From: Acutalibacteraceae bacterium
GTDB taxonomy: Bacteria > Actinomycetota > Coriobacteriia > Coriobacteriales > QAMH01
NCBI GenBank assembly: GCA_963606965.1
Contig: CAVDAL010000032.1
Location: forward strand, 25-64,024
Reading direction: 5' to 3'
DNA: 64,000 nucleotides
Shown here: in pieces, positions 7,601-24,513 of the stretch
How the letters are laid out: every line of letters starts with the position of its first letter
Position numbering within the stretch: position 1 is the stretch's first letter
Translations under genes and position numbers: made by a program
The notes under the pieces: generated by a model
Told to the model about the DNA's origin: nothing
The model's input: only the letters and a program-made list of their open reading frames with translations
The model's database searches: none

Positions 7601-7658
7601 TTGCGGTGAAGCTAGGCAGCTTTTAATAAAGCCAGAGTTGTTATATTGTTTTTTAGGG

Positions 7659-7693: not shown

Positions 7694-7789
7694 AGACTAT
7701 GTGAATATTTGACGCCGAGCGCATCTTAGTATTTATTCTTTGTGTTCTTTGCGGTATAGTTTGGAAGTTTTAAGTTTGGTTTTAAACGA

Positions 7790-10624: not shown

Positions 10625-11443
10625 TTATTTTTTCTTTGAAGCATGCGCTGCATACATTATGCTTGCAACAAGTATGCCCCCAATAATATTTCCAATTGTT
10701 ACAGGAATAAGGTTATTGATAATAAAACTTCCAAAATTCAAAACTGCTGTATTTATTCCAGCTTCAGCAATCATGCCTGCAAATGCAGAATTCATATTCG
10801 CAAAAATTCCAGCAGGGATGTAATACATATTTGCAACGCTATGTTCAAAGCCTGCAATAACAAATCCAAAGATTGGCAAGAACAAACCCATAATGCGTCC
10901 GGCTGTGTCATGCGCAGTGCTTCCTAAATAAACAGCTATGCAAACCAAGATGTTGCAGAACACGCCAAGTGCTAAAGCCTTTCCCCAGCTCAATGATGCT
11001 TTTGAGGCTGCTACTTTTGCAGTATATACAGCAAGTGCTCCGCCACCGATATCAAGCTGACCCAAAAAAGCCATGCATGCTGCTAAAGCAATAGCGCCAA
11101 CAAAATTGCCAACATATACAAGTCCCCAATTTCTTAAGAGCTTGCCTACTGTAATTTCTTTTGCATATACAGCAGAAATCATTAAGCAATTTCCTGTGAA
11201 AAGTTCTGTTCCAAGCAAAACAACCATAACCAAGCCAATAGGAAAGATTGCTCCGCTTACAAAGCGCACCATTCCAACATCGCTTAATGCATGCGCTGCA
11301 GTAGAAGATGCAACTGCGCCAAATCCAATTAAAACACCTGCAGCAATTCCCAAAACAAAAAGCTTCCACGCTGGAGCATTCGCTTTAGATATACTCGATT
11401 TTATGTAGTTGTCTGTGATTTCTGTAGGGCTGTTATAAGCCAT
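10625..11443 (-). CDS. formate/nitrite transporter (FNT) family channel
   Basis: Six-TM FNT layout with FLPIFGFVIAGFEHSVANMYYIP (the FNT central His region). SD GGAGGAACC precedes the ATG at 11443 (MAYNSPTEI...). Confidence 0.85.
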   Translation of the reverse strand: MAYNSPTEITDNYIKSSISKANAPAWKLFVLGIAAGVLIGFGAVASSTAAHALSDVGMVRFVSGAIFPIGLVMVVLLGTELFTGNCLMISAVYAKEITVGKLLRNWGLVYVGNFVGAIALAACMAFLGQLDIGGGALAVYTAKVAASKASLSWGKALALGVFCNILVCIAVYLGSTAHDTAGRIMGLFLPIFGFVIAGFEHSVANMYYIPAGIFANMNSAFAGMIAEAGINTAVLNFGSFIINNLIPVTIGNIIGGILVASIMYAAHASKKK

Positions 11444-11600
11444 GGTTCCTCCTAAGCTCATTCACACATTTGTGAATATCCATTATGTCTTGTGGATATT
11501 TATAAGGCATTGCAAGTTCAAGTTCTAATATGGCGTGGCATTGAACTTGGCATTCGTATTTGAATAATCTATAAGGCGCTTGCTTGCGTTTTGGCGCATG

Positions 11601-12314
11601 CTATTCAGAAATAATATCGCGTATAACTTTGGAAGCTATCATTTGACCCATGATTGCAGGGTAATATGAAATTGTTCCAATGTTTGCTCTGGCTTTGCGC
11701 GTGTTGTTATCTGCCGGAATGACAAGAGGCTCTTCAGGCGAATAGATGACCTGCATTTTTTCAAGCCCGCACTTTCTGGCATGCTTGCGAACAGCTTTAC
11801 ACATTCTGCATGTGTGAGTTTCATAGATATCTGCAAATTGCAACATTTGCGGGTCGAGCTTGTTCCCAGACCCAAGCGCGGCAATATAAGGAATTTCTAA
11901 GCTTTCAGCGCGCATTGCAAGAGCAACTTTTGTTGTGACAAGGTCTGCTGTGTCAACAATATAGTTTGGAACAAAATCCATCTTGCTGAAAAATTCATCA
12001 ATATTGTCAGGTAGCAGTTGCATAGAGATGCATTGAACTTTCGCGTCTGGGTTTATTTCTTTGATAATCGCAGACATCACTTCAAGCTTGCTTTTTCCAA
12101 TAGTGCTATTGAATGCAAGAGCTTGTCTATTTATGTTACTTTCGGAAACAATATCATAATCAACAAGGATAAATGCACCAATACCTGCGCGCGCCAAGCT
12201 TTCAACACAGTTGCTCCCGACGCCACCAATGCCAACCACTGAAACGCACGAATTAGCCAGTTCGCTAATTCCATGTTCGCCAATAAGGATTTTTGTTCGT
12301 TCATTAAAAGACAT
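11601..12314 (-). CDS. tcdA: tRNA threonylcarbamoyladenosine dehydratase (ThiF/E1-like)
   Basis: VSVVGIGGVGSNCVESLARAGIG..LVDYD..SNINRQ nucleotide-binding block plus the C-terminal CRMCKAVRKHARK segment typical of TcdA/CsdL. The likely start is the internal ATG at 12314 (MSFNERTK...). Confidence 0.7.
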   Translation of the reverse strand: MSFNERTKILIGEHGISELANSCVSVVGIGGVGSNCVESLARAGIGAFILVDYDIVSESNINRQALAFNSTIGKSKLEVMSAIIKEINPDAKVQCISMQLLPDNIDEFFSKMDFVPNYIVDTADLVTTKVALAMRAESLEIPYIAALGSGNKLDPQMLQFADIYETHTCRMCKAVRKHARKCGLEKMQVIYSPEEPLVIPADNNTRKARANIGTISYYPAIMGQMIASKVIRDIISE

Positions 12315-12459
12315 GGGAGTATTATATCCTATGGCTTGGGTGGGTGTTGCGCCGTCAGCACTTTGCTTATTTGTATTCGCGGAATTACATATTTTCAAGT
12401 CGGTAGTTTGCGTTACACTACTATAAGACATATGCCAATAGGAGTGAGGGGAAAGTTCC

Positions 12460-13341
12460 ATGGCTATAGGCACTAGTGGAAAACAAAGTATAAAAGAGAG
12501 GATAGCAACGCGTAATGCTGCAAGAAATGCAAAGCGCGATGCTGTGAATCAACATTATGCTGAAGTTGCAAATAATGTTCGCGCAATCACTCAAGATGAA
12601 AATCAATCATGTTCATCTGCATCTTCCTGCTCATGCAAAGATGCTAGAAGGCTTTATCCTGAACAGGTTATAGATGGAGTTCCTCAAGCAGCACTTCTTG
12701 CTTCTCGTGGCTGTGGCAATCCTTTTGACAGAACATGTTTAAAGGAAGGCGACACTGTTTTAGACCTTGGCTGTGGCGGCGGCATTGATGTTTTGTTAGC
12801 TGCACAAAAGGTTGGGGAAAGTGGTCATGTCACTGGCGTAGACATGACAGAAGAAATGCTTCAAATAGCCAGGGAAAATCAAGCCCTTACTAACATTACA
12901 AACGTTGACTTTGTTCAAGGATATCTTGAACATCTTCCATTTGATGATAATTCATTTGATTGCGTAATTTCTAATTGTGTTATAAATCTTTGTGAAGATA
13001 AAAGCAAAGTTCTGGCTGAAGCCTTGCGCGTTTTAAAGCCACTTGGCTGCTTTGTTGTTGCAGATATTGCTTTTGATTCTGCATATTATCAAGCACAAAG
13101 TGTGGATTCTGCTGCTGCAATCTTGGGCTGCACTTCTGGCGTTTTGGACATTCAGCAGTACAGAGGAATTTTAAACCAACTTGGTTTCTTAAGTTCAAAT
13201 ATTGAAATTTATAGGCGCTATCCTTATGAAACTTTGCAAGAAAAGGCACAGCAAAAAGGAATGCAGCAAGACTTAGCAGCATATTCTCCGCAATATATCG
13301 ATAATGCTTTTTGCGGTGTTTATGTTACAGCTTATAAATAA
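12460..13341 (+). CDS. arsM: ArsM-family SAM-dependent (arsenite-type) methyltransferase
   Basis: SAM motif VLDLGCGGGID plus the ArsM-specific Cys contexts: CSC near the N-terminus, SRGCGNP, ISNCVINL and ILGCTSG. SD GAGGGGA precedes the ATG. Confidence 0.7.
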   Translation: MAIGTSGKQSIKERIATRNAARNAKRDAVNQHYAEVANNVRAITQDENQSCSSASSCSCKDARRLYPEQVIDGVPQAALLASRGCGNPFDRTCLKEGDTVLDLGCGGGIDVLLAAQKVGESGHVTGVDMTEEMLQIARENQALTNITNVDFVQGYLEHLPFDDNSFDCVISNCVINLCEDKSKVLAEALRVLKPLGCFVVADIAFDSAYYQAQSVDSAAAILGCTSGVLDIQQYRGILNQLGFLSSNIEIYRRYPYETLQEKAQQKGMQQDLAAYSPQYIDNAFCGVYVTAYK

Positions 13342-13345
13342 GTTT

Positions 13346-14326
13346 TTAATCAAATAGCATTTTTAAAGGATATCTTGGCACATCCCAATCTTCGCCTTTG
13401 AGCGTTCTGATTTTATGCAAAACTTCATAAGCTAAAATGTCAAAATCTTCACTTGGCCTTTTGCCTCTTGGGCTTGTTCCAGCATCTGCCCAAAGCACAT
13501 TGCCAGCCCCTGTTCCAAAAGGAATGCTTTCCCCAGCGCACAAACGCATGATACATGCGAGCTGTTTGACTCGTGCGCCGCTTATTGTTTCTGTATTTTC
13601 CATAGCAGTGCCTCTGGCAGGCGTGAGCTTGCCAATTCCAGAACAATATGGCTTATAAGCAATGACTTCAAACATTCGCTGGACAATTTCTTTAGGATCG
13701 CTTGATGCTTGTACTGGTTCAACAGATGTCATTATTTGCAATCCTGCAGATACAGCAGCATCCAAAGTTGCTATGCGGCTTTGCGGATTGATTGAAGTTA
13801 TTGTTCCTTCTTCTAGCCTGTGTGCATGATAAATCGATTGCACGCCGAGCTTTTTGAGTTTTTGCGCTTGCTCAAACGTAATGTCTCCGATGTTTGCCAT
13901 TACAGGCATATTGTCTGAAATATTTTCACGCACTGCTTGTACAACTTCGCAAAATTGATCAAATGGATATGCTGCTGTGCTCATCAAGCTAATTAAGTGA
14001 GCGCCGCCTTTGTCAAAAGCTTGCGCAAATCTAACAATATCTTCAAGGGGAACAATCTGTTCATTTTTGCTATATGTATTTTGTTTTGCAGCAAATTTAC
14101 AAAAGTCGCAATTTGCGGGGCAAGGCAATTTGTCTAAGCCAATTTGTGCATAAACTTGACCGATATTTTTTGAAGCTTTTCTAGAAATTATCATTGCAGC
14201 ATTTATTGTGCATGCAGCTTCAAAAGAATCTGGCTCAAATTCCATAAATCGCAAAGCTTCTTCTTCATTTAAAAGCTTGCCACGCAAAACTTCATCAAGT
14301 CGTTTTTCTATCCATTTATCAAGCAT
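13346..14326 (-). CDS. radical SAM protein, BioB/HydE-like TIM-barrel class (paralog 1), function unknown
   Basis: Cluster motif CPANCDFC (CxxxCxxC) preceded by YAQIGL. Shares blocks with 16865-17878: TSVEPV vs TCVEPV, and GAGNVLWADAGTSPRG vs SGGNLTWAEVGSNPRD. Lies 18 nt downstream of the SufS-like fusion gene. Confidence 0.75.
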   Translation of the reverse strand: MLDKWIEKRLDEVLRGKLLNEEEALRFMEFEPDSFEAACTINAAMIISRKASKNIGQVYAQIGLDKLPCPANCDFCKFAAKQNTYSKNEQIVPLEDIVRFAQAFDKGGAHLISLMSTAAYPFDQFCEVVQAVRENISDNMPVMANIGDITFEQAQKLKKLGVQSIYHAHRLEEGTITSINPQSRIATLDAAVSAGLQIMTSVEPVQASSDPKEIVQRMFEVIAYKPYCSGIGKLTPARGTAMENTETISGARVKQLACIMRLCAGESIPFGTGAGNVLWADAGTSPRGKRPSEDFDILAYEVLHKIRTLKGEDWDVPRYPLKMLFD

Positions 14327-14344
14327 TAGTCTTCCTTATAAATT

Positions 14345-16507
14345 TTATCTGTCCCAATAAAGTTTTGAACAAAGTGAAACACTTGTAAGCAAAGCTTCAA
14401 TATCTTCAAGCGTTGTATGCACAGCAATGCTTGCACGTCCTGTGCCAATTGTACCAAAAGCGCCTGAAAGAGGAATTGCACAATGCGAACCTGCGCGAAT
14501 TGCAACGCCGCGATTCCCGCAGAAAGCTGCAAGCTGCGGCGGCGTGACGCCATCAAGTGAAAATGAAACAAGTCCATTTTGTCCATCAGCTTTTGAATGG
14601 TCGCCCCAAATTGTAATTCCCCAGATTTTCTTTAGCCCAGCAACAAGTGCTTTTGTCATTGCAACTTTGTGGTTTTGGCGTTCGCCTTCATCTAAGCTTT
14701 CAAGATAGTCGATTGCGCCACCCAAAGCTATAGCTTGTGAAATTGCAGGTGTGCCTGTTTCATATTGAATTGCGCCAAGTCTCAAATAGTAAGAGTCAAG
14801 CGACACATGAGAAATTACACCTCCGCCCAATGCAAGCGGGTCCATTTCTTCAAATGCATCTGGGTGAATCCACAAGCCACCAATCCCAAATGGTGCATAC
14901 ATTTTGTGCCCTGAAAATGCAATAAAATCAGCACCTGTTTTATAAACATCAATTTTTTGATGCGGCATTGATTGCGCAGCATCCAGCACAAATCTAGCTC
15001 CGCACTCATGTGCCATCTTTGCCATCTTTTCAACTGGCGCTTTAATTCCTGTGACATTTGAAATATGTGCAATGCAAACAAGCTTTGGCTTTTGTTCAAG
15101 AAGCTTTTCATAAGCTTCCATGTCAAGTCTGCAATCAGTTGTTAGCGGCAGGGCTTCCAATCTTGCACCCTTGCGTTGTGCCAAAGCAAGCCATGGCAAA
15201 TAATTTGAATGATGCTCAGCAATTGTGCTGATAATCAAGTCACCTTCAGAAATATTATGTTCGCCCCATGCTAAAGCAACAAGATTTAGCGAATCACTTG
15301 TATTCTTTGTATATACAGTTTCACGCCTGGAAGCGCCAATATAATCTTCCAACTTCGCTCTGGCATCATTTAGCATAGCCGTTGCTTTTGCAGAAAGCTC
15401 ATAAGCACCTCTATAAACATTTGCATTTTCATGCTTGTCAAAATTTTCCTGTGCTTGCAAAGCTTGGAAGCAACGCTGGCTTGTAGCAGCAGAGTCTAAA
15501 AATGCTAAGCTGTCTTTGTTTTTTGTATCCAGCAAAATGGGGAAGTTTTTGACTTGGCTTTTTCCAAAAGCATCCGCATCTGTTAGCTTTTTGCGCAAAG
15601 GCATAGGGAATGCTTTGTTTAAGGATGAAATAACATCTTTAGCTGCGTCGATAAGCTGCATATCAGCATTGTTATAGTTTTCTTTCTTGTGCTTTTTGCC
15701 TATGCTAAGCTTCATTTGTTCATGCGCAATACGCACAGCTTCACGCGCGCTCAAAGTGCATTCTTTTTCAAAGTCTTCAACGCGCTTGCAAGCTGGCAAA
15801 TTTGAGTCAAGGCGTTCTTCACCAAAATTATGATCCTTAATTTTGAGCATTGGAAGAATGCGCTCTTTTGGTGTCATTTCATAGATGGAATTTTCAAGCA
15901 AATCGCGCGAAACCAGAAGCGGAGTGTGGCGTGTCCATGCAATCCAAGATGTAACGCAATCAAGACTTGTATCATTGCGAAAATCTTGGCAAACTTCAAT
16001 TATGTGAGCAGGCGTCAACCTGACCTGGTCGCATGAAAGCAAGATAATTGAATCAATATCCGGATCATCTTCAATTTCTTCAAAAGCTATATCAAAAATC
16101 CCTTTTGTGAAACTGAACAAATCGAAAAAGCCAGATTCTTTGCTAGCTTTAGCATCCTTTTTGGAGTCATATCTAATTACGGAAGCATCATGTGCTAACT
16201 TTTTTGGCAACCTTAAATCTGGAGCTGCAATAATGTCAACGGATGCAAATTCGCACTGGCAAGCGCATTCATAAGATTGTTCAATCAAAGTCTTTTTCTG
16301 CCACACTTGCAAAGGTCTTGAGGCTTCTTTGCAAAGCTTTGGATCTTTACCAGGAATATCAGATTGCACTTTCAATGGAGTTGTGCCCATATTGTTTGCA
16401 AGAATGAATGCAGCTGTTCTTCCGCATGCTGCTTTCAACTCGTTTTTGCTTGGATTTTCCCGCTTAGGAATTTCCATGCTTGGTTGGTGCAACTTTCGAT
16501 CTTCCAT
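14345..16507 (-). CDS. fusion protein: unassigned ~340-aa N-terminal domain (possibly a degenerate MobA/MocA-like fold) plus a SufS/CsdA-type cysteine desulfurase
   Basis: C-terminal half carries LDSAATSQ, ANVYRGAYELS, AEHHSNYLPW, the PLP lysine in FSGHKMYAPFGIGGLW, ETGTP, and the active-site Cys in RAGSHCA. N-terminal half contains AAFILANNMGTTPLKV and IILLSCDQVRLTPAHI. SD AGAGGAG precedes the ATG at 16507. Confidence 0.75.
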   Translation of the reverse strand: MEDRKLHQPSMEIPKRENPSKNELKAACGRTAAFILANNMGTTPLKVQSDIPGKDPKLCKEASRPLQVWQKKTLIEQSYECACQCEFASVDIIAAPDLRLPKKLAHDASVIRYDSKKDAKASKESGFFDLFSFTKGIFDIAFEEIEDDPDIDSIILLSCDQVRLTPAHIIEVCQDFRNDTSLDCVTSWIAWTRHTPLLVSRDLLENSIYEMTPKERILPMLKIKDHNFGEERLDSNLPACKRVEDFEKECTLSAREAVRIAHEQMKLSIGKKHKKENYNNADMQLIDAAKDVISSLNKAFPMPLRKKLTDADAFGKSQVKNFPILLDTKNKDSLAFLDSAATSQRCFQALQAQENFDKHENANVYRGAYELSAKATAMLNDARAKLEDYIGASRRETVYTKNTSDSLNLVALAWGEHNISEGDLIISTIAEHHSNYLPWLALAQRKGARLEALPLTTDCRLDMEAYEKLLEQKPKLVCIAHISNVTGIKAPVEKMAKMAHECGARFVLDAAQSMPHQKIDVYKTGADFIAFSGHKMYAPFGIGGLWIHPDAFEEMDPLALGGGVISHVSLDSYYLRLGAIQYETGTPAISQAIALGGAIDYLESLDEGERQNHKVAMTKALVAGLKKIWGITIWGDHSKADGQNGLVSFSLDGVTPPQLAAFCGNRGVAIRAGSHCAIPLSGAFGTIGTGRASIAVHTTLEDIEALLTSVSLCSKLYWDR

Positions 16508-16560
16508 AAAAATCTCCTCTTATATGACTTGCCGCCTTTTGCACATAATGCAAATAGTAT

Positions 16561-16603
16561 ATAAAAAATGACAGATTCTTGAGGCCTGATCCAAGAATCT
16601 GTC
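16561..16603 (-). terminator. intrinsic terminator inside the 5' leader of the fusion/rSAM operon (attenuator or riboswitch expression platform)
   Basis: Perfect 12-bp stem GACAGATTCTTG / CAAGAATCTGTC (16570-16581 with 16592-16603) and a 10-nt loop. On the minus strand it is followed by ATTTTTTAT. It lies 54 nt upstream of the ATG at 16507 and before the SD. Confidence 0.55.
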
Positions 16604-16701
16604 AAGTCATCCTTCTTCTTTCATCTTTAAAATAATTGCCCATTTGTTCGGACAAATGCAAAGAAATAATACTTTTGCTGCCTGTGCTTCGACCGTTTAA
16701 C

Positions 16702-16731
16702 AGTATAAGACAATGTCAAATAAAAGCGCAA
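16702..16731 (-). promoter_or_regulatory. candidate promoter for the attenuated leader
   Basis: Minus strand TTGCGC (16731-16726), 18 nt, TATACT (16707-16702). This would give a leader of about 190 nt. Confidence 0.3.
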
Positions 16732-16792
16732 GTCCATACTTTGGCGAAAAATACTTGCATTCTTGCATATACTTTAGTTATTCTGTTAGTGG

Positions 16793-16810
16793 TTAGCGAC
16801 TAATAGCTAA
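16793..16810. promoter_or_regulatory. inverted repeat TTAGC-N8-GCTAA (candidate operator) in the divergent control region
   Basis: TTAGCGACTAATAGCTAA at 16793-16810, preceded by further TTAG copies (16774-16777, 16786-16789). About 55-70 nt upstream of the rSAM paralog 2 start. Confidence 0.3.
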
Positions 16811-16864
16811 AGTTACTATATGTTAAATAAAATAAAGAATTGTTAACTCGGGGAGATGTTTTTT

Positions 16865-17878
16865 ATGCAGAAGTTAACACCAAAAGTTGTTGAGCTTTTA
16901 GAAAAAGCTGAAGAAGGCAATGGCCTTGAATTTGACGAGATGGAATATCTTTATGGTCTTGACCCAACATCGCGCGATGCATGGCTTGTGCGTTGGGTTG
17001 CACATCAAATGTCTCTTGAAGCTACAAATGGTAAAGCTGAAATTCATGCACAAATTGGTTTGAATGGCAGCCCTTGTGGCAAAAATTGCAAGTTCTGCAG
17101 CTTTGCCGTTTGCAATGGTTTAACAAAAGAAAAAGTGGAACTTGATGTTGAAGATGTTAAAGCTTATTGCGATGCATATATGGAAGAAGGCGCAAACCTG
17201 ATTCTTATGCTAACAACAGCATCTTATAAGTTTGAAAAAATTCTTGAAATGGGGCAGGTCGCACGCGAAATTATTGGCAAAGACATGCCTCTTTTGGTAA
17301 ATACAGCAGACATGACGCTTGAACAAACAAAGCAAATTAAGGCTGCTGGCTTTAATGGCGCATATCATGCAATTCGCATGCGTGAAGGCGAAGATACAGA
17401 AATTCCAGTAGAAGAAAGACTTAATACAATTAAGAATTTGCAAGCGGCAGGCTTGTCAATTTCAACATGTGTTGAACCTGTCGGTCCAGAAGCAAGCGCA
17501 CATGAAATTGCAGAAGCTTCTGCACTTTGCATGAGCTATCCAAACAATTCTGCTGGCGTTGGCAGAAGAATTACTGTTCCTGGCACAATGGTTGAACCAC
17601 GCGGGCAGATTAGCGACCTTGTTGCTTCTTTATATGTTGCTGTCTATGGCCTTACAACTGGTTTCAAACCAGCTCTTAACTGTTCTGTTTGCTCACCACT
17701 TTCTGCTGTATCTGGCGGCAACTTAACTTGGGCGGAAGTCGGTTCTAACCCACGCGACGCTGTTGAACGCACAGAAAATGGCGGACGCGGTGCAAGCATT
17801 GAACGCTGCCGCAGCGAATATGAAAAGGCTGGCTGGGAAGTTTTAGAAGGACCTTCACAGGGCTGGATTCTAGATTAG
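16865..17878 (+). CDS. radical SAM protein, BioB/HydE-like class (paralog 2), function unknown
   Basis: CGKNCKFC (CxxxCxxC) preceded by HAQIGL, with blocks shared with 13346-14326. SD GGGGAG is correctly spaced for the ATG at 16865, whereas the track start at 16856 abuts the SD. Confidence 0.75.
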   Translation: MQKLTPKVVELLEKAEEGNGLEFDEMEYLYGLDPTSRDAWLVRWVAHQMSLEATNGKAEIHAQIGLNGSPCGKNCKFCSFAVCNGLTKEKVELDVEDVKAYCDAYMEEGANLILMLTTASYKFEKILEMGQVAREIIGKDMPLLVNTADMTLEQTKQIKAAGFNGAYHAIRMREGEDTEIPVEERLNTIKNLQAAGLSISTCVEPVGPEASAHEIAEASALCMSYPNNSAGVGRRITVPGTMVEPRGQISDLVASLYVAVYGLTTGFKPALNCSVCSPLSAVSGGNLTWAEVGSNPRDAVERTENGGRGASIERCRSEYEKAGWEVLEGPSQGWILD

Positions 17879-17887
17879 TAATTAACA

Positions 17888-17931
17888 AAATGAAATAAGA
17901 AGTGTGGGGGCGCTTCTTCTTTTCATTTTTT
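17888..17931 (+). terminator. probable rho-independent terminator (or partial terminator) after rSAM paralog 2
   Basis: AAATGAAA-T-AAGAAG / CTTCTT-CT-TTTCATTT bipartite stem (8+6 bp) with loop TGTGGGGGCG. The 3' arm runs into TTTTT. Confidence 0.5.
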
Positions 17932-17971
17932 AGGGCCTTTTGACAGCTTCAATTTGGGAGGAAATTAAAAA

Positions 17972-18982
17972 GTGGCAAAGAAGGATACTAGTGTAGAAAA
18001 AGCGATACGCACTACACGCAGGGCAAAAGATTATGTGAAGATGCTTTTGCCTATTGCTGGCGTTTTAATTGCGTTGGCAGAATGGTATGGCACAGATATC
18101 GTATACCCTTTGACATATACAGGAACTGTTAATCCAATTTGGTTTTCAACATTTTTAAAGGTTTATGGAATCATTTATATAATCTTTTATTTGATTTCAA
18201 TTTTTAGCGGCTCTATTCGTTATCATCTTGTGAAATGGGCATGGCTTTTATTTATGGTTCCATTCCTTTTATGTATTTGGGACTTAACAACTTTGAAATC
18301 TGGCATCTTTAAGTTGCCATTTACTCCAGGTCCAGACAAGATTCTTTCAATTGTTCCATTGAATTGGCAAGACTTAATTTATCACTTGTGGGAATCTATG
18401 AAGTTGCTCTTCACAGGCGTGTTCATTGGTCTTGTAACAGGTTTTGTTTCCGGATTGCTTATTGGCTGGTCACACTTCTTTGATTATTGGATTTCTCCTT
18501 TAATGAAGATTATTGGCCCTGTTCCATCAGCAGCATGGCTTCCAATTGCTGTTGCAATCATGCCATCGTCACGCGCAGCTGGCTTGCTCTTGATTGCAAT
18601 TGCTGTTTGGTTCCCGCTTACTTTGATGCTTTCATCAGAATTAAAATCAACAGACATTCGTAAGATTGAAGCAGCACGTGTTCTTGGTGCAAGCGAAAGA
18701 TATATTTTGTTCAAAGTTGCTTTGCCATCTGCATTGCCTGGAATTTTTAACGGCTTATTCATGGGCTTGTCATCGTCATTCGGCGCTTTGGTTATCGCTG
18801 AACAGCTTGGCGTTAAAGCAGGTCTTGGTTGGTATATCAACTGGGCTGCATCATGGGCAGAATATGCAAAAGTATTCGCAACAGTCGGCATCTTCATTAT
18901 AATTTTCTATGTTTTGACAACATTGCTCTTTAAGTTGCGCGACGGAATTATGAAGTGGCAAGAGGGTACGGTGAAGTGGTAA
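17972..18982 (+). CDS. ABC transporter permease, NitT/TauT (SsuC/ThiX-like) family
   Basis: EAA-loop region IEAARVLGASERYILFKVALPSALPGI and multiple TM helices. GTG start is preceded by GGGAGG. Confidence 0.8.
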   Translation: MAKKDTSVEKAIRTTRRAKDYVKMLLPIAGVLIALAEWYGTDIVYPLTYTGTVNPIWFSTFLKVYGIIYIIFYLISIFSGSIRYHLVKWAWLLFMVPFLLCIWDLTTLKSGIFKLPFTPGPDKILSIVPLNWQDLIYHLWESMKLLFTGVFIGLVTGFVSGLLIGWSHFFDYWISPLMKIIGPVPSAAWLPIAVAIMPSSRAAGLLLIAIAVWFPLTLMLSSELKSTDIRKIEAARVLGASERYILFKVALPSALPGIFNGLFMGLSSSFGALVIAEQLGVKAGLGWYINWAASWAEYAKVFATVGIFIIIFYVLTTLLFKLRDGIMKWQEGTVKW

Positions 18983-19848
18983 TGGCTTTGAAGAAAGATA
19001 CAAGTCGCAGTGTGCAAGAAACAAAAGAAATTGCATCAGAACAAATGCTTGATGAAAATTTAGCAAAAGAAACTTTATTGCGACATGAAAATCATATATT
19101 GAAATCTGTTGGCATTCGACAGGTCTTTAATGAAGAAGAAGAAAATGAAGTCATAGCTTTGGAAGGCGTTGACTTAGAAATTAGTGGCGATGACATCGTT
19201 GGTTTAATTGGTCCTTCTGGCTGTGGTAAGTCGACATTTTTGCGCATTGCTGCTGGCTTGGATAAGCCAACAAGTGGCGAAATCACATTTGATGGTGAAC
19301 CTATCAAAGGCCCAGATTGGCATCGTGGCGTTGTATTTCAAGGCGCACAGCTTTTTGAATTTTTGACTGTTTATGGCAATGTTGCATTTGGTTTGAAAGC
19401 TCGTGGAGTTTATAAAGGTAATGAAGATAAAGTTGACGAATTTTTAAAGCTTGTTGGCTTGGAACAGTTTGCTCATTCTTACCCGCATCAAATTTCTGGC
19501 GGCATGGCTGCTCGTGTTGCAATTGCAAGAACTTTAATTCAGCAGCCTGGCCTTGTTTTGATGGATGAGCCGCTTTCTGCTTTGGATGCGTTCACACGTG
19601 GCACGATTCAAGATGAAATTATCAAGCTTTTAAAGACGTCAAACACTCTTTCAATGCTTGTTACACATGATATTGAAGAGGCTGTTTATATGTGCGACAG
19701 AGTTTTGGTTATGTCGCCACGTCCTGGTCGCGTTGTTGCGGATATCAAAATCGATCTTGAACATCCACGCGACAGGATTTCGCCTGAATTTGTTGAATAC
19801 AGGCGTCAAGTGCTCGATGCATTAAATGATGCACATGCACTTGATTAA
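18982..19848 (+). CDS. ABC transporter ATP-binding protein, NitT/TauT family
   Basis: Walker A GPSGCGKST, signature ISGGMAARV, Walker B LVLMDEPLSALD. TAATG start/stop overlap with the permease gene; the track start at 18955 is probably too long. Confidence 0.85.
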   Translation: MALKKDTSRSVQETKEIASEQMLDENLAKETLLRHENHILKSVGIRQVFNEEEENEVIALEGVDLEISGDDIVGLIGPSGCGKSTFLRIAAGLDKPTSGEITFDGEPIKGPDWHRGVVFQGAQLFEFLTVYGNVAFGLKARGVYKGNEDKVDEFLKLVGLEQFAHSYPHQISGGMAARVAIARTLIQQPGLVLMDEPLSALDAFTRGTIQDEIIKLLKTSNTLSMLVTHDIEEAVYMCDRVLVMSPRPGRVVADIKIDLEHPRDRISPEFVEYRRQVLDALNDAHALD

Positions 19849-19917
19849 TTTTGGTTTCGACCTGGTTAAGATGGTCAGGTGAAATAATACTCAATTTTTC
19901 TACATGGGAGGTTTTTT

Positions 19918-20961
19918 ATGAGTATTACAAGAAGGAAATTTATTGGTGCTGCGGCAGCAGCAGGTGCTCTTGCAGCAAGTGGCGCAGCAGTAAGTGGCTG
20001 CGGCAGCGAAGAGACAACTTCAACAGAAGTTGACAAGGTTGTTGTTGGCTACTGGGGTGGCACTTGCGAAGCTCCTATCTTTATTGCTAAAGAAAAGGGC
20101 TACTTTGAAGAAGAAGGTCTTGAAGCAGAAGTTACTTTGCTCGACTCTGATGGTGGCATTTCTTCAGAATCAGGCGTTGCTAATGGTGAACTTGACTGCT
20201 ATGAATTGACACCTGATAAGTTCAAGCCAATTGAACAAGGCTCACCAATGAAGGTTATCGATTCTCTTCACATTGGCTGCATCCAAGCTTGCGCTTCAAA
20301 AAAGAGTGGCATTACATCTGTTAAGGATCTTGAAGGCAAAAAGGTTGCTGCTTCACAGGGCAGCATTGCTCACATCATGTTGGCAAACCAGATGATCTTG
20401 GAAGGTGCTGACCCAACTAAGGTTGAATGGCTCACTTATAAAAACCCAATGATGGAAGCTGCAATTGATGCTGGCGAAGTTGACGCTATGGCTTGCTATG
20501 ACCCATATGTTGACATTGCTGTAAAGAATGGCAAGAAGCGCTTCTGGTCATGGACATATGATGAAGGCGTTAATGAAATCCTTTGCTGCTTCGTTGGCTG
20601 CAGTCAGTTGACATTTGAAAATAAACCAAATGCTCCTAAGAAACTTGCTGCTGCTTTCAAGAAGGCAACACAGTTCTTGGAAGAAAATCCAGAAGAAGCT
20701 GCACAAATTATCATTGATGGTGGCTATGTTAAACTCAATGATGACTCAGGCTTCACGAAGGATATCATGGTTACTGAAATTAAGGATTATCAATGGTTAT
20801 CTGGTGACAAAGATGTATTCGACAAGTCATATAAATACATTTGGGAAGCTATCTGGCGTGCTGGCGCTCTTGATGATTATGATTTCAAGACTGTTGAAGA
20901 AGTTGACGAATGGTGCATGGGCGATATGTACACTCAAATGTGTGAATATTGCGGTGAATAA
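19918..20961 (+). CDS. ABC substrate-binding lipoprotein, NMT1/THI5-like (SsuA/ThiY-like)
   Basis: Tat-like lipoprotein signal MSITRRKFIGAAAAAGALAASGAAVSGC, then a periplasmic-binding fold of the NitT/TauT type. SD GGGAGG upstream. Confidence 0.75.
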   Translation: MSITRRKFIGAAAAAGALAASGAAVSGCGSEETTSTEVDKVVVGYWGGTCEAPIFIAKEKGYFEEEGLEAEVTLLDSDGGISSESGVANGELDCYELTPDKFKPIEQGSPMKVIDSLHIGCIQACASKKSGITSVKDLEGKKVAASQGSIAHIMLANQMILEGADPTKVEWLTYKNPMMEAAIDAGEVDAMACYDPYVDIAVKNGKKRFWSWTYDEGVNEILCCFVGCSQLTFENKPNAPKKLAAAFKKATQFLEENPEEAAQIIIDGGYVKLNDDSGFTKDIMVTEIKDYQWLSGDKDVFDKSYKYIWEAIWRAGALDDYDFKTVEEVDEWCMGDMYTQMCEYCGE

Positions 20962-20992
20962 TTCTCGATTTTTAAAAGGATTGATGATTTAA

Positions 20993-21439
20993 ATGAAATC
21001 TTCGCTTTGGAAAACTGTTTCAATACTTACATGTGTTCTTGCTATCGCTGCTTTGATTGTATGCATCGCCATGGGCGGTTGCAGCAAGCAGCTTGAAACA
21101 ACTGCAGGTGGAGTTTGCTACATGAAATGTTATTGGTGCTTTAGAGCATCTACTATTGTTTTAGGTTTAACAATTATTGCTTCTTTTGCTCAAATTTTTA
21201 AGAAAGAAGCTGATACGCGCCGTGTTTGCGCTGTGTTTACGGGGCTTGGCGCTGTGGGCACAATCGCAATGAATGCAACATCTATTGTTGGCATTTGCGT
21301 GGGCGCTGCAGAAGCTGGAATGCATTGCTTCACAACTGCATTGGTGGTTGATATCATTTGCGCAGTTATAATAATTCTGGCTTTTGTTGCAATTTTTGGT
21401 TCAAAGCCAAAATCTAATAAACCAAAAATGACTTTGTAA
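20993..21439 (+). CDS. Cys-rich small membrane protein, DUF4418-like
   Basis: 148 aa, four hydrophobic helices, conserved-looking Cys contexts (GGCSK, CYMKCYWC, MHCF). Position upstream of an FtsX/MacB ABC pair is as commonly seen for DUF4418. Family assignment is from memory. Confidence 0.45.
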   Translation: MKSSLWKTVSILTCVLAIAALIVCIAMGGCSKQLETTAGGVCYMKCYWCFRASTIVLGLTIIASFAQIFKKEADTRRVCAVFTGLGAVGTIAMNATSIVGICVGAAEAGMHCFTTALVVDIICAVIIILAFVAIFGSKPKSNKPKMTL

Positions 21440-21469
21440 CATTAATATTTGTCTGTAAAAGGAACCTTC

Positions 21470-22684
21470 ATGAAAGAACTCATTTTTAGCAGTTTAAAGA
21501 AGCGTAAAATTCAGACGATTTCGGTTGTGCTTGTGGTTGCCGCAAGCACAACCCTTCTTTTTTCTCTGCTCTTAATTTATAGTGGTGTGTCTTCAGGTGT
21601 GACACTTTCAAAAGAACGCGGTGGTGCAGAACTTATGCTTTTGCCAGCCGACGCAGATGAATCAATATCAGATAACACTTTGCTATTTACTGGTTCTCCT
21701 ACACCTGTTTATATGAATTCTGATGTCTTGGAAAAGGCAGCAAAAATTGATGGAGTTGCAAAGGTTGCTCCGCAATTTTTCTCGCAAACAATAGAAGCAA
21801 GCTGCTGCACAACTGGCAGTGAAACAAGAGTTATTGGCTTTGACCCGAAAAGCGATTGGGTAGTCCAGCCATTGACTGATTGTGATCTTTCTAATGGTCT
21901 TGCTGAAGACGAAGTGCTTGTTGGCGCACGAATGTCTGATTATGGCGGAGACACCATTAGTATGCTTGGAAAAGAGTACAAGATTGCTGGATATCTTGCA
22001 GAAACAGGTTCTGATATTGACCTATCATTAATGGTTGATATTGAAACTGCACGTCAGATGTCTAGGGAGATTGTTGGCTATGATCATTATTGGGAAAAAT
22101 ATGGTGACCCAGACACGCTTGTTTCAAGCGTTTTGATAGATGTAGATGACAGCCTGTCTGAAACTGAACAAACTATGGTTTTGCGTAAATTGAGCAATAT
22201 CGATGGCGTTAGAGTTTTGGAAAGAAGCAGTGTTATTGATAGTTCGCAAGAATCTTTATCAAGTGTTTTTGCTGTGATGTTTGCAGCTGGAATTTTGATG
22301 CTTATTGTTTGTATTTTGCAATTGTTCTCGCGCTATTACTCTTGCGTGTGGGAACGCAAATCAGAACTTGCTTTATATAGAGCTGTTGGAGCTACGCAAA
22401 AGCAGCTTTCAGGCTTGATAGGCGGGGAAGCAGCAATATTGAGTGGTGCCGGAATTGTGATAGGCCTTGTGCTTGGCGTAATACTTTATTTTGCTGGTCA
22501 AGCATGGCTTTCTAGCATGGAATCATTCCCATTTGTTGCACCATCAATTCTGATTTCAATAGCTTTTGGAGCTGGCGTGGTTGTGCTGCTAGCACTTGTG
22601 ACCTTGCTTTCTATCATTGCTCCGTTAAGACAACTTAATCGCATTGACCCTTCGCTTGCTATGCAGCAAAGTGATATCGATTAA
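21470..22684 (+). CDS. ABC transporter permease, FtsX/MacB type
   Basis: N-terminal TM helix, large extracytoplasmic domain, C-terminal FtsX 3-TM bundle (ELALYRAVGATQKQL...). SD AAAGGAA precedes the ATG at 21470. Confidence 0.75.
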   Translation: MKELIFSSLKKRKIQTISVVLVVAASTTLLFSLLLIYSGVSSGVTLSKERGGAELMLLPADADESISDNTLLFTGSPTPVYMNSDVLEKAAKIDGVAKVAPQFFSQTIEASCCTTGSETRVIGFDPKSDWVVQPLTDCDLSNGLAEDEVLVGARMSDYGGDTISMLGKEYKIAGYLAETGSDIDLSLMVDIETARQMSREIVGYDHYWEKYGDPDTLVSSVLIDVDDSLSETEQTMVLRKLSNIDGVRVLERSSVIDSSQESLSSVFAVMFAAGILMLIVCILQLFSRYYSCVWERKSELALYRAVGATQKQLSGLIGGEAAILSGAGIVIGLVLGVILYFAGQAWLSSMESFPFVAPSILISIAFGAGVVVLLALVTLLSIIAPLRQLNRIDPSLAMQQSDID

Positions 22685-22699
22685 GGGAAGGAGCAAATA

Positions 22700-23371
22700 A
22701 TGGCTGAAGAAACTGTATTAAAAGTTGAACATATTTCAAAATCTTTTGGTGAAACAACAATTTTAAAAGATGTAAACTTCACGCTTGACCGCGGCGAGTC
22801 AATTTCAATAACAAGCCCGTCAGGCTCTGGCAAGTCTACAATTCTTTCTATTGTTGGTTTGTTGCTTGCTCCGGACTCTGGTCAAATTATCATCAATGGC
22901 AAAGAAGCTATTGGTTTAGATGATGATGAACTTTCGCAATTGCGTCGCCAAGCATTTGGCTTTGTCTTTCAACATACTCAATTGATTGGTTCTTTGCGTG
23001 CTTATGAAAATGCAGCTGTGCCAGCAAGATTTGATGGAAATCAAGATGCAAATGCAGATGAAAAAGCAAAAGAGCTTCTTGTTGCATTAGGTTTGGAAGA
23101 GCGTCTTGAACATTATCCGCATCAATTAAGTGTTGGGCAAAAGCGCCGCGTTGCTGTTGCTCGTGCGTTATTACTTAATCCGCAAATCATTCTTGCAGAT
23201 GAGCCAACAAATGACTTGGATGCAGGTTCAGCAAATTCTGTTGCAGAAATGCTTTTTGAACAACCAAAGAATGGCAAGTCGCTTATTCTTGTTACGCATG
23301 ATGTACAGCTTGCTGAAAAGACAGACCATCAATATCATTTGACAGATGGTAAGCTTGAGCAAATTCGATAA
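22700..23371 (+). CDS. ABC transporter ATP-binding protein (LolD/MacB-ATPase-like)
   Basis: Walker A SPSGSGKST, signature LSVGQKRRVAVARAL, Walker B IILADEPTNDLD. Confidence 0.85.
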   Translation: MAEETVLKVEHISKSFGETTILKDVNFTLDRGESISITSPSGSGKSTILSIVGLLLAPDSGQIIINGKEAIGLDDDELSQLRRQAFGFVFQHTQLIGSLRAYENAAVPARFDGNQDANADEKAKELLVALGLEERLEHYPHQLSVGQKRRVAVARALLLNPQIILADEPTNDLDAGSANSVAEMLFEQPKNGKSLILVTHDVQLAEKTDHQYHLTDGKLEQIR

Positions 23372-23445: not shown

Positions 23446-24513
23446 TTAAAAACAAGTATCCAAACAGAATTCAAGATAGTCTTTGCTTAAATAAATTTTA
23501 AGCTTATTAAATGTCTTTTCATTTTTAAGCTGCCGCGCACAGGTATGATATTCCACCCAAGCATTGCAGCTCCATGTTATTCCGCGCAAGCAATTTGAAC
23601 TTACATATGCGCCGAAGCGTTCTTCAAAATTGCCCGTGTCGAAACGACTGCCAACATGCTTCCAGTAATCTTCAACAAAATTTTCGCGTTCTTTTTGTTT
23701 GAAGATATATTCGCTGTCCCAAATTGTTGTTGTAGGCGACAAATAATAAGCAATATCTTGTGCGACTTCTGCGATTATTGGCTTTTCCCAGTCAACCATT
23801 TTGCCCTGCTTGATATTGCCATTTTCATCATGCTGAATAATGAAGTGTGAAGGAACAGCTTCTGTATTGATGATATGCGATGCATCTTCTTCAACAAAAC
23901 GGCTATTGTTTAGCTTTTGCTTTGTTTGCTTAATCATCTGCTGTGCGCGCTTCATTACCATATCATCTGCAAGCGCAGACTTTTCATATGCTTTAAAAAA
24001 GCCCATGCATTCATTGAATTGGTCCTGCAATGGGTCGCCCGGTTTTAGTATTCCATGCGCCGGAGGGCAAACAGAATGAATATCTGCAAGGATGTGTGCA
24101 CATTCTGTAACATCTTGCGGTTTTTCAAAATCCATCCATTCGCCTTGCAAGAATTCTTGAACCAAAATGCCTTTATCAAGAAGTTTGCAAGAATTATCAA
24201 CATATATCGGCAATGCTGTTCTGCAACTTTTATAAAGAGCTTTTAAAGCGTTATATTCATATTCAATTTGATTATCAAGATTAAGCTGACTTGAAAAATT
24301 AATTCTAAAGACATATTTTTGTTCAAAGAGCAAGCCTTTGTTTGCAGTAATCAAAAAGTTCATATTATGTTCGCCTTGAGCAAGCATTTCGCATGTGAAA
24401 GAATCTTTATCTTCCAAATTCAAAGCTTTTTGGAGCTCGGCATTGCTGCTGATATATCTTCGTATTTCTTCACATTGCATCTGTTTAGCACACTTTCTCT
24501 TCAGTATTTGCAC
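23446..24513 (-). CDS. phosphotransferase-family (APH/choline-kinase-like) protein
   Basis: Kinase-like layout with LAQGEHNMNF near the N-terminus and ...IIQHDENGNIKQGKMVDWEKPIIAEVAQDIAYYL (the H.D..N ... DWE ... D motif region). Start is either GTG 24513 or ATG 24480. Confidence 0.5.
   Translation of the reverse strand: MQILKRKCAKQMQCEEIRRYISSNAELQKALNLEDKDSFTCEMLAQGEHNMNFLITANKGLLFEQKYVFRINFSSQLNLDNQIEYEYNALKALYKSCRTALPIYVDNSCKLLDKGILVQEFLQGEWMDFEKPQDVTECAHILADIHSVCPPAHGILKPGDPLQDQFNECMGFFKAYEKSALADDMVMKRAQQMIKQTKQKLNNSRFVEEDASHIINTEAVPSHFIIQHDENGNIKQGKMVDWEKPIIAEVAQDIAYYLSPTTTIWDSEYIFKQKERENFVEDYWKHVGSRFDTGNFEERFGAYVSSNCLRGITWSCNAWVEYHTCARQLKNEKTFNKLKIYLSKDYLEFCLDTCF

Follow-up and report, generated by a model that had tools for sequence, protein, structure and literature searches.

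Gene content of the locus

Within the window, the whole 64,000-nucleotide stretch of DNA analysed, two genes for BioB/HydE-class radical SAM proteins, rSAM1 (13346..14326, minus strand, 326 aa) and rSAM2 (16856..17878, plus strand), flank a fusion gene (14345-16507, minus strand) whose 720-aa product joins a MocA/MobA-like domain to a SufS-type desulfurase. All three are present where a preliminary description of this DNA had placed them. The rSAM2 product is 340 aa long when counted from the first ATG and 337 aa according to gene callers. The fusion stop codon and the rSAM1 start are separated by 18 nt, exactly as described, and the divergent control region between the fusion and rSAM2 genes (16508..16855), previously put at 350 bp, measures 348 bp. 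A promoter-like box on its minus strand, TTGACATTGTCTTATACT, is conserved, and the fusion gene has a terminator-like hairpin (16569-16604, minus strand) in its leader. The region had no Rfam match and no Moco riboswitch.

Across a gap of 4 nt, rSAM1 is convergent with a gene for an ArsM-like SAM-dependent methyltransferase (12460..13341, plus strand, 293 aa). Beyond rSAM2, the plus strand encodes the permease (17972..18982, PF00528) of a NitT/TauT-type ABC importer, the importer ATPase (18955..19848), a lipoprotein substrate-binding protein of the NMT1/SsuA type (19918..20961), a small Cys-rich DUF4418 membrane protein (20993..21439), a MacB/FtsX-type ABC exporter permease (21449..22684), and the ATPase of this MacB-type exporter (22700..23371). 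An APH-like kinase gene (23446..24513, minus strand, PF01636) follows. It was found again next to the locus in four relatives (L009, L035, L037, and L089) and is possibly associated with it, its membership being uncertain.

The radical SAM pair

Both radical SAM proteins contain a CX3CX2C motif, CPANCDFC at residues 69-76 of rSAM1 and CGKNCKFC at residues 74-81 of rSAM2. The sole further invariant cysteine of rSAM1 is C228, and those of rSAM2 are Cys205, Cys225, and Cys276. The two proteins aligned over 287 aa with 31% identity (BLASTP, E=9e-45), and the colinear blocks TSVEPV/TCVEPV and GAGNVLWADAGTSPRG/SGGNLTWAEVGSNPRD were found in their translations. Judged by this similarity, which is far above the chance level, they are paralogues, as had been proposed.

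The AF2 model of rSAM1 (pLDDT 89) gave a TM score of 0.79 against both BioB (8vdw) and HydE. BioB of types I and II and HydE have the (beta/alpha)8 radical SAM fold in common with these proteins (TM 0.77-0.80) and CX3CX2C at the equivalent place, and the chemistry of the two known enzymes takes place at sulfur centres. The closest profile and fold matches were biotin synthases, and Cys205 of rSAM2 aligned within one residue of the BioB ligand Cys188. However, sequence identity to BioB and HydE was 15-18%, the BioB profile gave 65 bits for rSAM1 and 26 bits for rSAM2 against a cut-off of 225, neither protein matched the HydE profile, the BioB cluster ligands are not kept, and bio or hyd genes are absent around the pair. 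The preliminary description had named a set of characterised families for comparison, and in the profile search neither protein reached the curated cut-off of BioB, HydE, PylB, ThiH, MqnE, or CofH. They have the full-barrel BioB/HydE fold and stand outside every named family. They are also distinct from the bona fide HydE of the window, again in agreement with the earlier claim: the gene with the CKNNCYYC motif (56006-57088) encodes a true HydE (TIGR03956, 518 bits vs a cut-off of 254.6) and is followed by those for HydG, HydF, and a group A [FeFe] hydrogenase, with hydEGF at 56-60 kb.

The desulfurase fusion and the methyltransferase

The C-terminal domain of the fusion (14345..15547, minus strand) is a SufS-type (type II) cysteine desulfurase, with a PF00266 match at E=1.2e-107, a TIGR01979 score of 411.5 (cut-off 475.1), and Foldseek TM scores of 0.88-0.94 to SufS structures. 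The PLP-binding Lys535 and Cys676 were invariant among 28 homologues. The N-terminal part (15548..16507, minus strand) consists of a divergent MocA/MobA-like nucleotide-binding domain and a helical linker; PF12804 scored 22.6 bits in the window fusion and matched 16 of 18 homologues (best E=2.4e-10). Here Cys28 is invariant, the nucleotide-binding glycine loop is gone, and the CDQ motif varies at its Asp. Without the nucleotidyl-transferase glycine loop, the domain probably only binds a nucleoside-like ligand. Its tested remote standalone relatives were MocA/YgfJ/PucB/DVU_1551-like. Only 67 cluster representatives of 1.84 billion matched it at E<=1e-10, and most of the stronger full-length matches were ~700-850 aa or >1000 aa long, which are the lengths of SufS and SufS-plus-methyltransferase fusions. 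No protein of the SufBCD, SufE, SufU, or IscU type was found among those scanned at 5627-10388 (minus the ORF at 8854-9522) and 10625-31457, consistent with the earlier remark that no such scaffold is adjacent.

The methyltransferase scored 246.1 bits against the arsenite methyltransferase model NF008823, just under the cut-off of 263. Its Cys85 (GCGNP) and Cys173 (SNCVIN) were invariant among homologues, and Cys224 and Cys51 were present in 78% and 67% of them, respectively. The enzyme retains the As(III)-binding cysteines of the ArsM type. Triple fusions of the MocA-like domain, SufS, and the ArsM-like methyltransferase occur in P0242, P0254, and P0260, and the methyltransferase domain of P0242 lies above the ArsM cut-off (264.5 vs 263).

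Cysteines of the transport proteins

The importer permease scored 79.9 bits for TauC and 77.2 bits for SaoP, both under the cut-off, and the top NCBIfam match of the ATPase was SaoA (223.9 bits vs a cut-off of 360). Cys50, Cys121, and the Cys223-Cys224 pair of the binding protein are invariant. So are Cys46, Cys102, and Cys112 of the DUF4418 protein, in which Cys30 is present in 93% of cases, and the Cys119-Cys120 pair within the MacB-like periplasmic core domain of the exporter permease.

Conservation of the locus and arsenic-related neighbors

Linkage was assessed in those fusion-bearing loci, 14 in number, whose flanks extend 3 kb or more in each direction. All 14 had at least one BioB-like radical SAM gene within 6 kb of the fusion and 12 had at least two, so that the rSAM-fusion-rSAM arrangement is conserved across genomes. 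An ArsM-like methyltransferase gene adjoins the fusion in 12-13 of these loci, being placed between the fusion and rSAM1 in most relatives, and transporter parts occur in 11. The genome collection contained 470 relatives of rSAM2, with up to 7 radical SAM paralogues per 20 kb. Many loci have the importer permease gene next to rSAM2-type genes. Of the rSAM2-anchored loci that span 12 kb or more, roughly one half lack any transporter part and roughly two thirds lack a fusion within 10 kb.

In related loci of four phyla, such radical SAM genes stand beside those for ArsS, arsenosugar-associated transferases, a second ArsM type, and aquaglyceroporins. ArsS-like matches were obtained in nine loci, from Eggerthellaceae, Syntrophomonas, Nitrospiraceae, and an unclassified bacterium, and four exceeded the curated cut-off of 300 bits (L053, 377.6; L069, 442.6; L051, 388.9; L071, 358.5). 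The gene order in L071 is a TIGR04283 arsenosugar transferase, a BioB-like radical SAM protein, a CCG/DedA protein, and an ArsS-ArsM fusion, and in L083 TIGR04282 and a TIGR04283-like gene adjoin the radical SAM gene. The second ArsM type was found in L010, L017, L019, L042, and L097, accompanied by MIP channels in L010, L017, and L042. The window itself contains no ArsS, aquaglyceroporin, or classical ars genes.

In gut Coriobacteriia, the rSAM-fusion-rSAM triad forms the centre of a conserved cluster of ~11 kb (12460-23371) that is uncharacterised. The preliminary description was right about the triad itself, but the triad is not the whole unit: the ArsM-like gene, the transporters with their Cys and CC sites, and the repeated co-localisation of this radical SAM family with ArsS and arsenosugar genes in other loci, all overlooked, indicate that the unit is the 11-kb locus. 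As had been stated, the gene set matches no characterised pathway.

Possible function of the locus

Our tentative reading, to which we give somewhat less than an even chance, is that the locus encodes an undescribed system that takes up, modifies, and exports a thiophilic metalloid, with arsenic as the likeliest candidate. In its favor are the linkage of the genes across loci, the triple fusions, the conserved cysteines, the independent arsenic genes of related loci, and the radical SAM fold outside all named families. A metalloid, not an ordinary sulfur cofactor, would be the most likely substrate because the cluster holds an ArsM-like enzyme and cysteine-lined transporters. Such a system would combine methylation, sulfuration, and radical bond formation. 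The NitT/TauT-type importer would bring in the substrate through the lipoprotein with its four invariant cysteines, including the CC pair, and the ArsM-like enzyme would hold the trivalent centre by its conserved cysteines and then methylate it. The SufS domain would form an enzyme persulfide from cysteine. Either the metalloid centre, which would become a thio-species, or auxiliary sites of the radical SAM proteins might then receive the sulfane sulfur, possibly by way of Cys28 of the MocA-like domain. With the 5'-deoxyadenosyl radical, the radical SAM proteins could form or cleave a bond at this As or S centre, as ArsS does at As(III) and HydE at metal-bound sulfur. Export of the product or surplus metalloid would finally fall to the DUF4418 protein together with the MacB-type pump and its CC pair.

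Several points speak against this reading. ArsS, aquaglyceroporin, and classical ars genes are missing from the window, its methyltransferase stays just short of the ArsM cut-off, and many rSAM2-anchored loci have no transporter part or no fusion nearby. ArsM-family enzymes and Cys-rich sites leave the element open, and Se, Sb, Hg, and sulfur species fit equally. To our knowledge, systems for deliberate cellular uptake of arsenic are not established. The expansion to as many as seven radical SAM copies resembles a catabolic family of diverse substrates more than a single biosynthetic step, and no sequence feature of rSAM1 or rSAM2 points to a specific reaction.

Among known systems, the arsenosugar ArsM/ArsS pair of Synechocystis, with TIGR04282/TIGR04283, likewise places a methyltransferase with As(III)-binding cysteines beside a radical SAM protein, and bona fide ArsS and these transferases adjoin the present family in several related loci. 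However, the proteins here belong to the full-barrel BioB/HydE class rather than to ArsS, and the locus has the SufS fusion and two ABC systems in addition. The arsinothricin genes ArsL/ArsM, by which C-As bonds are formed (PMC8552651), resemble the locus in their set of radical SAM protein, ArsM-family methyltransferase, and transporter, but ArsL (47.5 kDa) carries its CX3CX2C motif at residues 194-201, and no ArsL-type family match was found in the locus.

The preliminary description proposed dedicated insertion of sulfur (or selenium) into an organic metabolite or cofactor, which we judge rather unlikely. The SufS domain would feed or rebuild a sacrificial auxiliary Fe-S cluster of the BioB-like proteins, the methyltransferase would cap the thiol or selenol so formed, and precursor and product would be carried by the transporters. 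The resemblance to biotin synthases, the three extra invariant cysteines of rSAM2 with Cys205 near the BioB ligand, the translational coupling of desulfurase and rSAM1, and the lack of a generic Fe-S scaffold gene in the scanned region would suit this proposal. Yet rSAM1 has only one extra conserved cysteine and the remaining BioB cluster ligands are missing. Nor does the proposal account for the Cys triad of ArsM type, for the CC motifs in the binding protein and in the exporter, or for the recurrent ArsS, arsenosugar-transferase, and aquaglyceroporin neighbors. Fewer parts of the locus are explained by a sulfur or selenium cofactor pathway than by arsenic-type metalloid chemistry, and sulfur transfer may be one step of the metalloid system. 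It is distinctly less probable that the locus is a selenocysteine-free relative of what Haft and Gwadz (bioRxiv 10.1101/2022.07.06.499078) put forward as the SAO (selenocysteine-assisted organometallic) locus, handling a different soft metal or metalloid (Hg, Sb, Bi, Te, or Se) in detoxification or energy metabolism, with arsenic not the physiological substrate. A soft metal is presumed for both. The importer ATPase, permease, and binding protein match SaoA, SaoP, and SaoX; of the conserved SaoX cysteines (Cys50, Cys192, and Cys224-225), Cys50 is shared and the CC pair corresponds to 223-224 here; and the pairing of importer and exporter fits the logic argued for SAO. All Sao model scores, however, are far under the cut-offs, and those three were the only Sao families among the NCBIfam matches listed for the locus proteins, up to 25 families each for three of these; the MerB-like SaoL and SaoB, SaoC, SaoD, SaoE, and SaoT were not among them. 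No selenocysteine codon aligned with any Cys position, the SAO exporter is ArsP-like rather than MacB/FtsX-type, and SAO as described has no radical SAM protein, desulfurase, or methyltransferase. The recurring neighbors here (such as ArsS and TIGR04282/TIGR04283) are arsenic-specific families.

A molybdenum/tungsten cofactor sulfurase is very improbable. The MocA-like domain would hold the pterin cofactor, SufS would install a terminal sulfido or selenido ligand, and the radical SAM proteins would be cofactor maturases. Eukaryotic Moco sulfurase (MOCOS/ABA3) is likewise a cysteine desulfurase fused to a cofactor- or nucleotide-binding domain, but in the reverse domain order and with a MOSC rather than a MobA-like partner. 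The MocA/YgfJ/PucB-like standalone relatives and the richness of Eggerthellaceae in molybdoenzymes, with MobB and DMSO-reductase-family genes in a few loci, are in line with such a role. Against it stand the lost glycine loop, the variable CDQ Asp, and the missing riboswitch, and the ArsM-like fusion partner and ArsS neighbors would be unexplained. Molybdoenzyme neighbors, none of them ArrA, occurred in only four loci (L010, L015, L016, and L018), probably no more than chance for these genomes. Scores for the DVU_1551 NTP transferase and DVU_1556 methyltransferase families were under the cut-off; judging only by family names and locus tags, a MocA-like protein and an ArsM-related methyltransferase appear to recur together in another uncharacterised cluster.

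Two paralogous radical SAM proteins of the BioB/HydE structural class

The three ORFs of the triad were confirmed at the positions assigned in the preliminary description: the radical SAM gene rSAM1 (13346-14326, minus strand, 326 aa), the desulfurase fusion (14345-16507, minus strand, 720 aa) and the second radical SAM gene rSAM2 (16856-17878, plus strand, 340 aa, or 337 aa by gene callers). The gap between the fusion and rSAM1 was 18 nt, and the divergent region, previously put at 350 bp, measured 348 bp. rSAM1 and rSAM2 shared 31% identity across 287 residues (E=9e-45) and are therefore paralogues, as had been proposed. Both show the features that characterize the radical SAM superfamily, a [4Fe-4S]-binding CX3CX2C motif on a (partial) TIM-barrel fold, and the motif (CPANCDFC and CGKNCKFC) was invariant in 25 and 26 homologues, respectively. 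The PF04055 scores were 26.8 and 24.5 bits, slightly below the gathering score of 29.5.

The AlphaFold model of rSAM1 (pLDDT 89) superposed on type II BioB, HydE and PylB with TM scores of 0.77-0.80 (0.79 for BioB and HydE) at 15-18% identity, and the only solved structures matched by profiles of each rSAM family were biotin synthases, PylB and HydG (E=4e-15 to 5e-4). Scores against the curated families were low. For BioB (TIGR00433), rSAM1 and rSAM2 reached 65.3 and 25.9 bits against a cut-off of 225; for HydE (TIGR03956, cut-off 254.6 bits), neither paralogue matched at E<=0.01; for PylB, the best score was 32.5 bits against 348; and for ThiH, MqnE and CofH, the best scores were 19.4, 17.3 and 15.7 bits against 380, 435 and 374. 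The earlier claim that neither protein fits a characterised family thus held for all six of these cut-offs. Taken together with the profile matches and the rSAM1 fold, these scores place the pair in the full-barrel BioB/HydE structural class, in no described family.

Beyond the motif, one further cysteine was invariant in rSAM1 (C228) and three in rSAM2 (C205, C225 and C276). The auxiliary cluster ligands of BioB are Cys97, Cys128, Cys188 and Arg260 in E. coli numbering. Profile alignment to 1r30 placed no cysteine at the Cys97 or Cys128 positions, and Cys205 of rSAM2 was the sole extra cysteine lying beside a BioB ligand (Cys188). Across the related loci, clustering separated the rSAM family into at least six subfamilies with differing conserved-cysteine patterns; the locus defines several uncharacterised subfamilies within this structural class. 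Tandem expansions of BioB-like rSAM genes occurred in L053, L039, L090, L091 and L001, with up to seven copies per 20 kb (seven in L053), and Ellagibacter-like contigs carried three 354-aa copies of near-identical length upstream of the fusion.

A SufS-type desulfurase fused to a rare, probably MocA-like domain

The last 400 residues of the fusion form a type II SufS domain (PF00266, E=1e-107). His534-Lys535, with the PLP lysine, and the catalytic Cys676 were invariant in 28 sequences, and Foldseek matched the domain to SufS/CsdB structures with TMt of 0.88-0.94 and 32-39% identity, so that the lysine, the cysteine and the type II fold expected of SufS are all present. The score against TIGR01979 (SufS) was 411.5 bits, below the cut-off of 475.1, and homologues scored 398-420. 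In agreement with the preliminary description, no SufE, SufU or SufBCD was found near the fusion when proteins at 5.6-31.5 kb, other than ORF 8854-9522, were scanned.

The N-terminal 320 residues appear to constitute a very divergent MobA-like domain. PF12804 gave 22.6 bits on the window protein against a gathering score of 27, and 16 of 18 homologues matched it (best E=2.4e-10). The loop has the sequence LANNMGTTPL and an insertion ahead of RPLQ, and the glycine-rich NTP loop is missing; in the CDQ motif the Asp was not invariant, and Cys28 was. The fold comparison of the fusion was dominated by SufS matches, and a search of PDB sequences with an N-domain profile returned only E=0.14-1.2. The remote standalone relatives tested were MocA/YgfJ/DVU_1551-like. 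Homology to the arsenosugar-associated TIGR04282 transferase was rejected (hhalign probability 0.2%). No curated NCBIfam or Pfam family was matched at threshold by this domain or by either rSAM protein. The domain is rare, with 67 cluster representatives among 1.84 billion at E<=1e-10, and the stronger full-length matches were mostly of SufS-fusion length (~700-850 aa) or, with a methyltransferase, of triple-fusion length (>1000 aa). In three fusion homologues (P0242, P0254 and P0260), the methyltransferase is fused to the desulfurase C-terminus. This rare joining of a MocA-like domain to SufS, and sometimes to ArsM, implies that sulfane sulfur and methyl groups may be channelled to one substrate.

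An ArsM-like methyltransferase convergent with rSAM1

The ArsM-like methyltransferase gene (12460-13341, plus strand) is convergent with rSAM1. Its product scored 246.1 bits against the arsenite methyltransferase model NF008823, under the cut-off of 263, whereas the fused methyltransferase domain of P0242 scored 264.5 bits, above it. The window protein has both the SAM-binding motif (VLDLGCGGG) and the conserved cysteines typical of ArsM: Cys85 (GCGNP) and Cys173 (SNCVIN) were invariant, and Cys224 and Cys51 were present in 78% and 67% of sequences. These presumably correspond to the As(III)-binding Cys44, Cys72, Cys174 and Cys224 of CmArsM. In two metagenome contigs (L102:6081-6863 and L103:10132-10914), the methyltransferase reads SNCVLNFSSN*RAV, with an in-frame TAG aligned to Lys181 in the window protein; the gene could be a pseudogene or an assembly variant, or the TAG could be read through or recoded.

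On the other side of the methyltransferase lies a ThiF/TcdA-like gene (11601-12473, minus strand), whose longest ORF overlaps the divergent methyltransferase start by 14 nt; in L086, gene callers take a shorter 276-aa form. Its best match was TcdA, far under the cut-off of that family, and no ThiS/MoaD-like ORF ending in GG was found in the window. The gene also adjoins the methyltransferase in L085, not in more distant loci. This gene and a FocA-like gene (10625-11461) recurred only in the closest relatives, L085 and L086, and were rejected as parts of the system.

Transport genes with conserved cysteines

The importer, DUF4418 and MacB-type exporter genes follow rSAM2 at 17972-23371 (plus strand). 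Invariant cysteines were found in the importer binding protein (Cys50, Cys121 and Cys223-Cys224), the exporter permease (Cys119-Cys120) and DUF4418 (Cys46, Cys102 and Cys112), the last of which has a Pfam entry only as a domain of unknown function. The importer ATPase had SaoA, the ATPase of the hypothetical selenocysteine-assisted organometallic (SAO) system of Haft and Gwadz, as its best family, and the binding protein matched SaoX weakly; the scores for SaoA, SaoP and SaoX were 223.9, 77.2 and 58.7 bits against cut-offs of 360, 295 and 300. The conserved cysteines of SaoX are Cys50, Cys192 and Cys224-225 according to Haft and Gwadz, and the CC pair at 223-224 and Cys50 of the window binding protein match them. 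No in-frame TGA aligned with any conserved cysteine, and no MerB-like SaoL was present among the NCBIfam matches listed for the locus proteins. The locus may represent a selenium-free counterpart of the SAO system.

In eight loci (L003, L009, L024, L026, L032, L047, L050 and L054), a different ABC importer adjoins the rSAM2-type gene, consisting of an SBP_bac_8-type binding protein of 470-530 aa, two permeases and an ATPase of ~400 aa; L003 has the NMT1-type set besides. An APH-like phosphotransferase gene (23446-24513, minus strand), possibly a further part of the system, adjoins the exporter ATPase gene and is again found next to the locus in L009, L035, L037 and L089.

Two linked modules in Coriobacteriales

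Neighbourhoods and tblastn maps were compared for 103 fetched loci. A simple ORF caller predicted false antisense ORFs in loci of high GC content (cluster 6), so the counts rest on the tblastn maps. Homologues came nearly all from Eggerthellaceae and other Coriobacteriales (Ellagibacter, Gordonibacter, Raoultibacter and many MAGs), and their source annotations were only 'radical SAM protein', 'biotin synthase' or 'aminotransferase class V-fold'.

Two linked modules were recognized. Module A comprises the rSAM2-type gene, a NitT/TauT importer (permease, ATPase and NMT1-type lipoprotein), DUF4418, and a MacB/FtsX permease and ATPase (16856-23371 in the window); in some loci the importer is a different one. 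Module B comprises the fusion, the ArsM-like methyltransferase and the rSAM1-type gene, mostly in this order and on a single strand. Linkage was counted in the 14 fusion-bearing loci flanked on either side by 3 kb or more. At least one BioB-like rSAM gene lay within 6 kb of the fusion in all 14, and two or more in 12, which bears out the conservation of the rSAM-fusion-rSAM arrangement; the methyltransferase was present in 12-13 and transporter parts in 11. Both modules form one string in Ellagibacter isourolithinifaciens DSM 104140 (L046). In Gordonibacter (L018 and L020, the latter being the transporter-rSAM module of Gordonibacter pamelaeae) and in Syntrophomonas (L060 and L061), module A stands with no module B close by. 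The closest rSAM2 relatives in the genome collection (L006, L062 and L064; 76-79% identity) lie on contigs without an adjacent importer, fusion or methyltransferase. Several contigs of this kind were binned as Ruthenibacterium, Acidaminococcaceae, Akkermansia or Phocaeicola, implausible taxa that suggest mis-binning.

Arsenic genes beside related loci

More distant rSAM2 relatives (~42% identity) were found in Desulfobacterota, Nitrospiraceae, Chlorobium, Deferribacterales and Leptospirales. In the Nitrospiraceae locus L071, the rSAM gene is flanked on one side by a TIGR04283 arsenosugar-biosynthesis transferase (222 bits vs. 182) and on the other by an ArsS-ArsM fusion, the ArsS part of which scored 358.5 bits against a cut-off of 300. 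In the Leptospirales locus L083, the genes that follow it encode a TIGR04283-like protein and a TIGR04282 transferase (184 bits vs. 134). ArsS-like genes occurred in nine loci. Scores above the ArsS (TIGR04167) cut-off were reached in L051 (388.9) and L053 (377.6), both from Eggerthellaceae, and by the Syntrophomonas gene of L069 (442.6), which lies directly upstream of the rSAM gene. A second, longer ArsM type was present in L010, L017, L019, L042 and L097, and MIP-family channels in L010, L017 and L042. The window itself contained no ArsS (TIGR04167) match anywhere, nor the arsenosugar transferases, second ArsM type or MIP channels of the related loci. Molybdopterin oxidoreductases near some loci were rejected as ArrA (47-107 bits; cut-off 1600).

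A tentative role in metalloid chemistry

The locus is a variant of the rSAM-plus-ArsM organoarsenical systems and of the hypothetical SAO system. We tentatively take its conserved parts and arsenic-gene neighbours to be best explained by thiophilic-metalloid chemistry, most likely of arsenic, at somewhat short of even chances, because a cysteine-lined importer, a cysteine-rich membrane protein and a CC exporter are conserved together, an ArsM-type methyltransferase is physically coupled to a desulfurase, the rSAM class includes HydE, which attacks metal-bound sulfur, and ArsS, arsenosugar and aquaglyceroporin neighbours recur. The main cautions are that rSAM paralogues are expanded, to as many as seven per 20 kb in L053, and that the window lacks the arsenic genes. 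The preliminary description favoured sulfur or selenium insertion, which overlaps partly with metalloid chemistry; we regard it as rather unlikely, since it leaves the ArsM-type cysteines, the CC motifs and the arsenic-gene neighbours unexplained. An SAO-like system handling another soft metal, to which the SaoA and SaoX likenesses lend themselves, is a weaker rival and seems improbable. Weaker still is a Moco sulfurase, which appears very improbable; an Rfam-type search of the 348-bp control region yielded no Moco riboswitch at E<=1.

Under the metalloid reading, As(III) bound to cysteines would be methylated, persulfide sulfur would sulfurate the metalloid, the rSAM proteins might catalyse radical adenosylation or the formation or cleavage of C-As or C-S bonds, and the product would finally be exported. 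The fuller proposal is that Coriobacteriia of gut and rumen, together with some Syntrophomonas, deliberately take up thio- or oxy-arsenic through the cysteine-lined ABC importer and convert it to a sulfur-containing organoarsenical via the channelled desulfurase-methyltransferase and new BioB/HydE-class rSAMs; in this complete form we consider it doubtful. If true, it would provide a third, independent radical SAM family acting at arsenic and the first enzymatic route in anaerobes to thiolated or adenosylated arsenicals.

According to two earlier reports, the gut microbiota of humans and animals methylates and thiolates arsenic and converts arsenosugars, and where thiolated methylarsenicals come from is there called unclear (PMC2920899, PMC4123032). 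The locus is a concrete genetic candidate, open to test in cultivable gut Actinobacteria, and cultivable hosts exist for direct tests of the cluster. Literature searches on DUF4418, SAO follow-ups, ArsM with rSAM and desulfurase, and Eggerthellaceae with arsM found no description of it.

Control region and other features of the window

No riboswitch of any kind was detected in the 348-bp control region at E<=1, and the fusion leader had no Rfam match. In its 5' leader the fusion gene carries a terminator-like hairpin (16569-16604, minus strand) with a 14-bp stem followed by a T run, and upstream of it a strongly conserved box, TTGACATTGTCTTATACT (16640-16720), enclosing the palindrome GACAnTGTC. 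The hairpin was retained with compensatory changes in L085, a 66%-identical locus, and was absent from L084. Hairpin and box could serve as an attenuator or operator.

Elsewhere in the window, a glycine riboswitch aptamer (RF00504) was found at 31651-31747 (plus strand; 58.4 bits, gathering score 32), just upstream of a 493-aa ORF (31760-33241). The gene with the CKNNCYYC motif (56006-57088), earlier called the bona fide hydE, indeed encodes HydE (518 bits; cut-off 254.6). It opens a set at 56006-63425 (plus strand) that comprises a complete hydE-hydG-hydF, then an NAD(P)-binding GltD-like subunit and then a group A (A6-like) [FeFe] hydrogenase.
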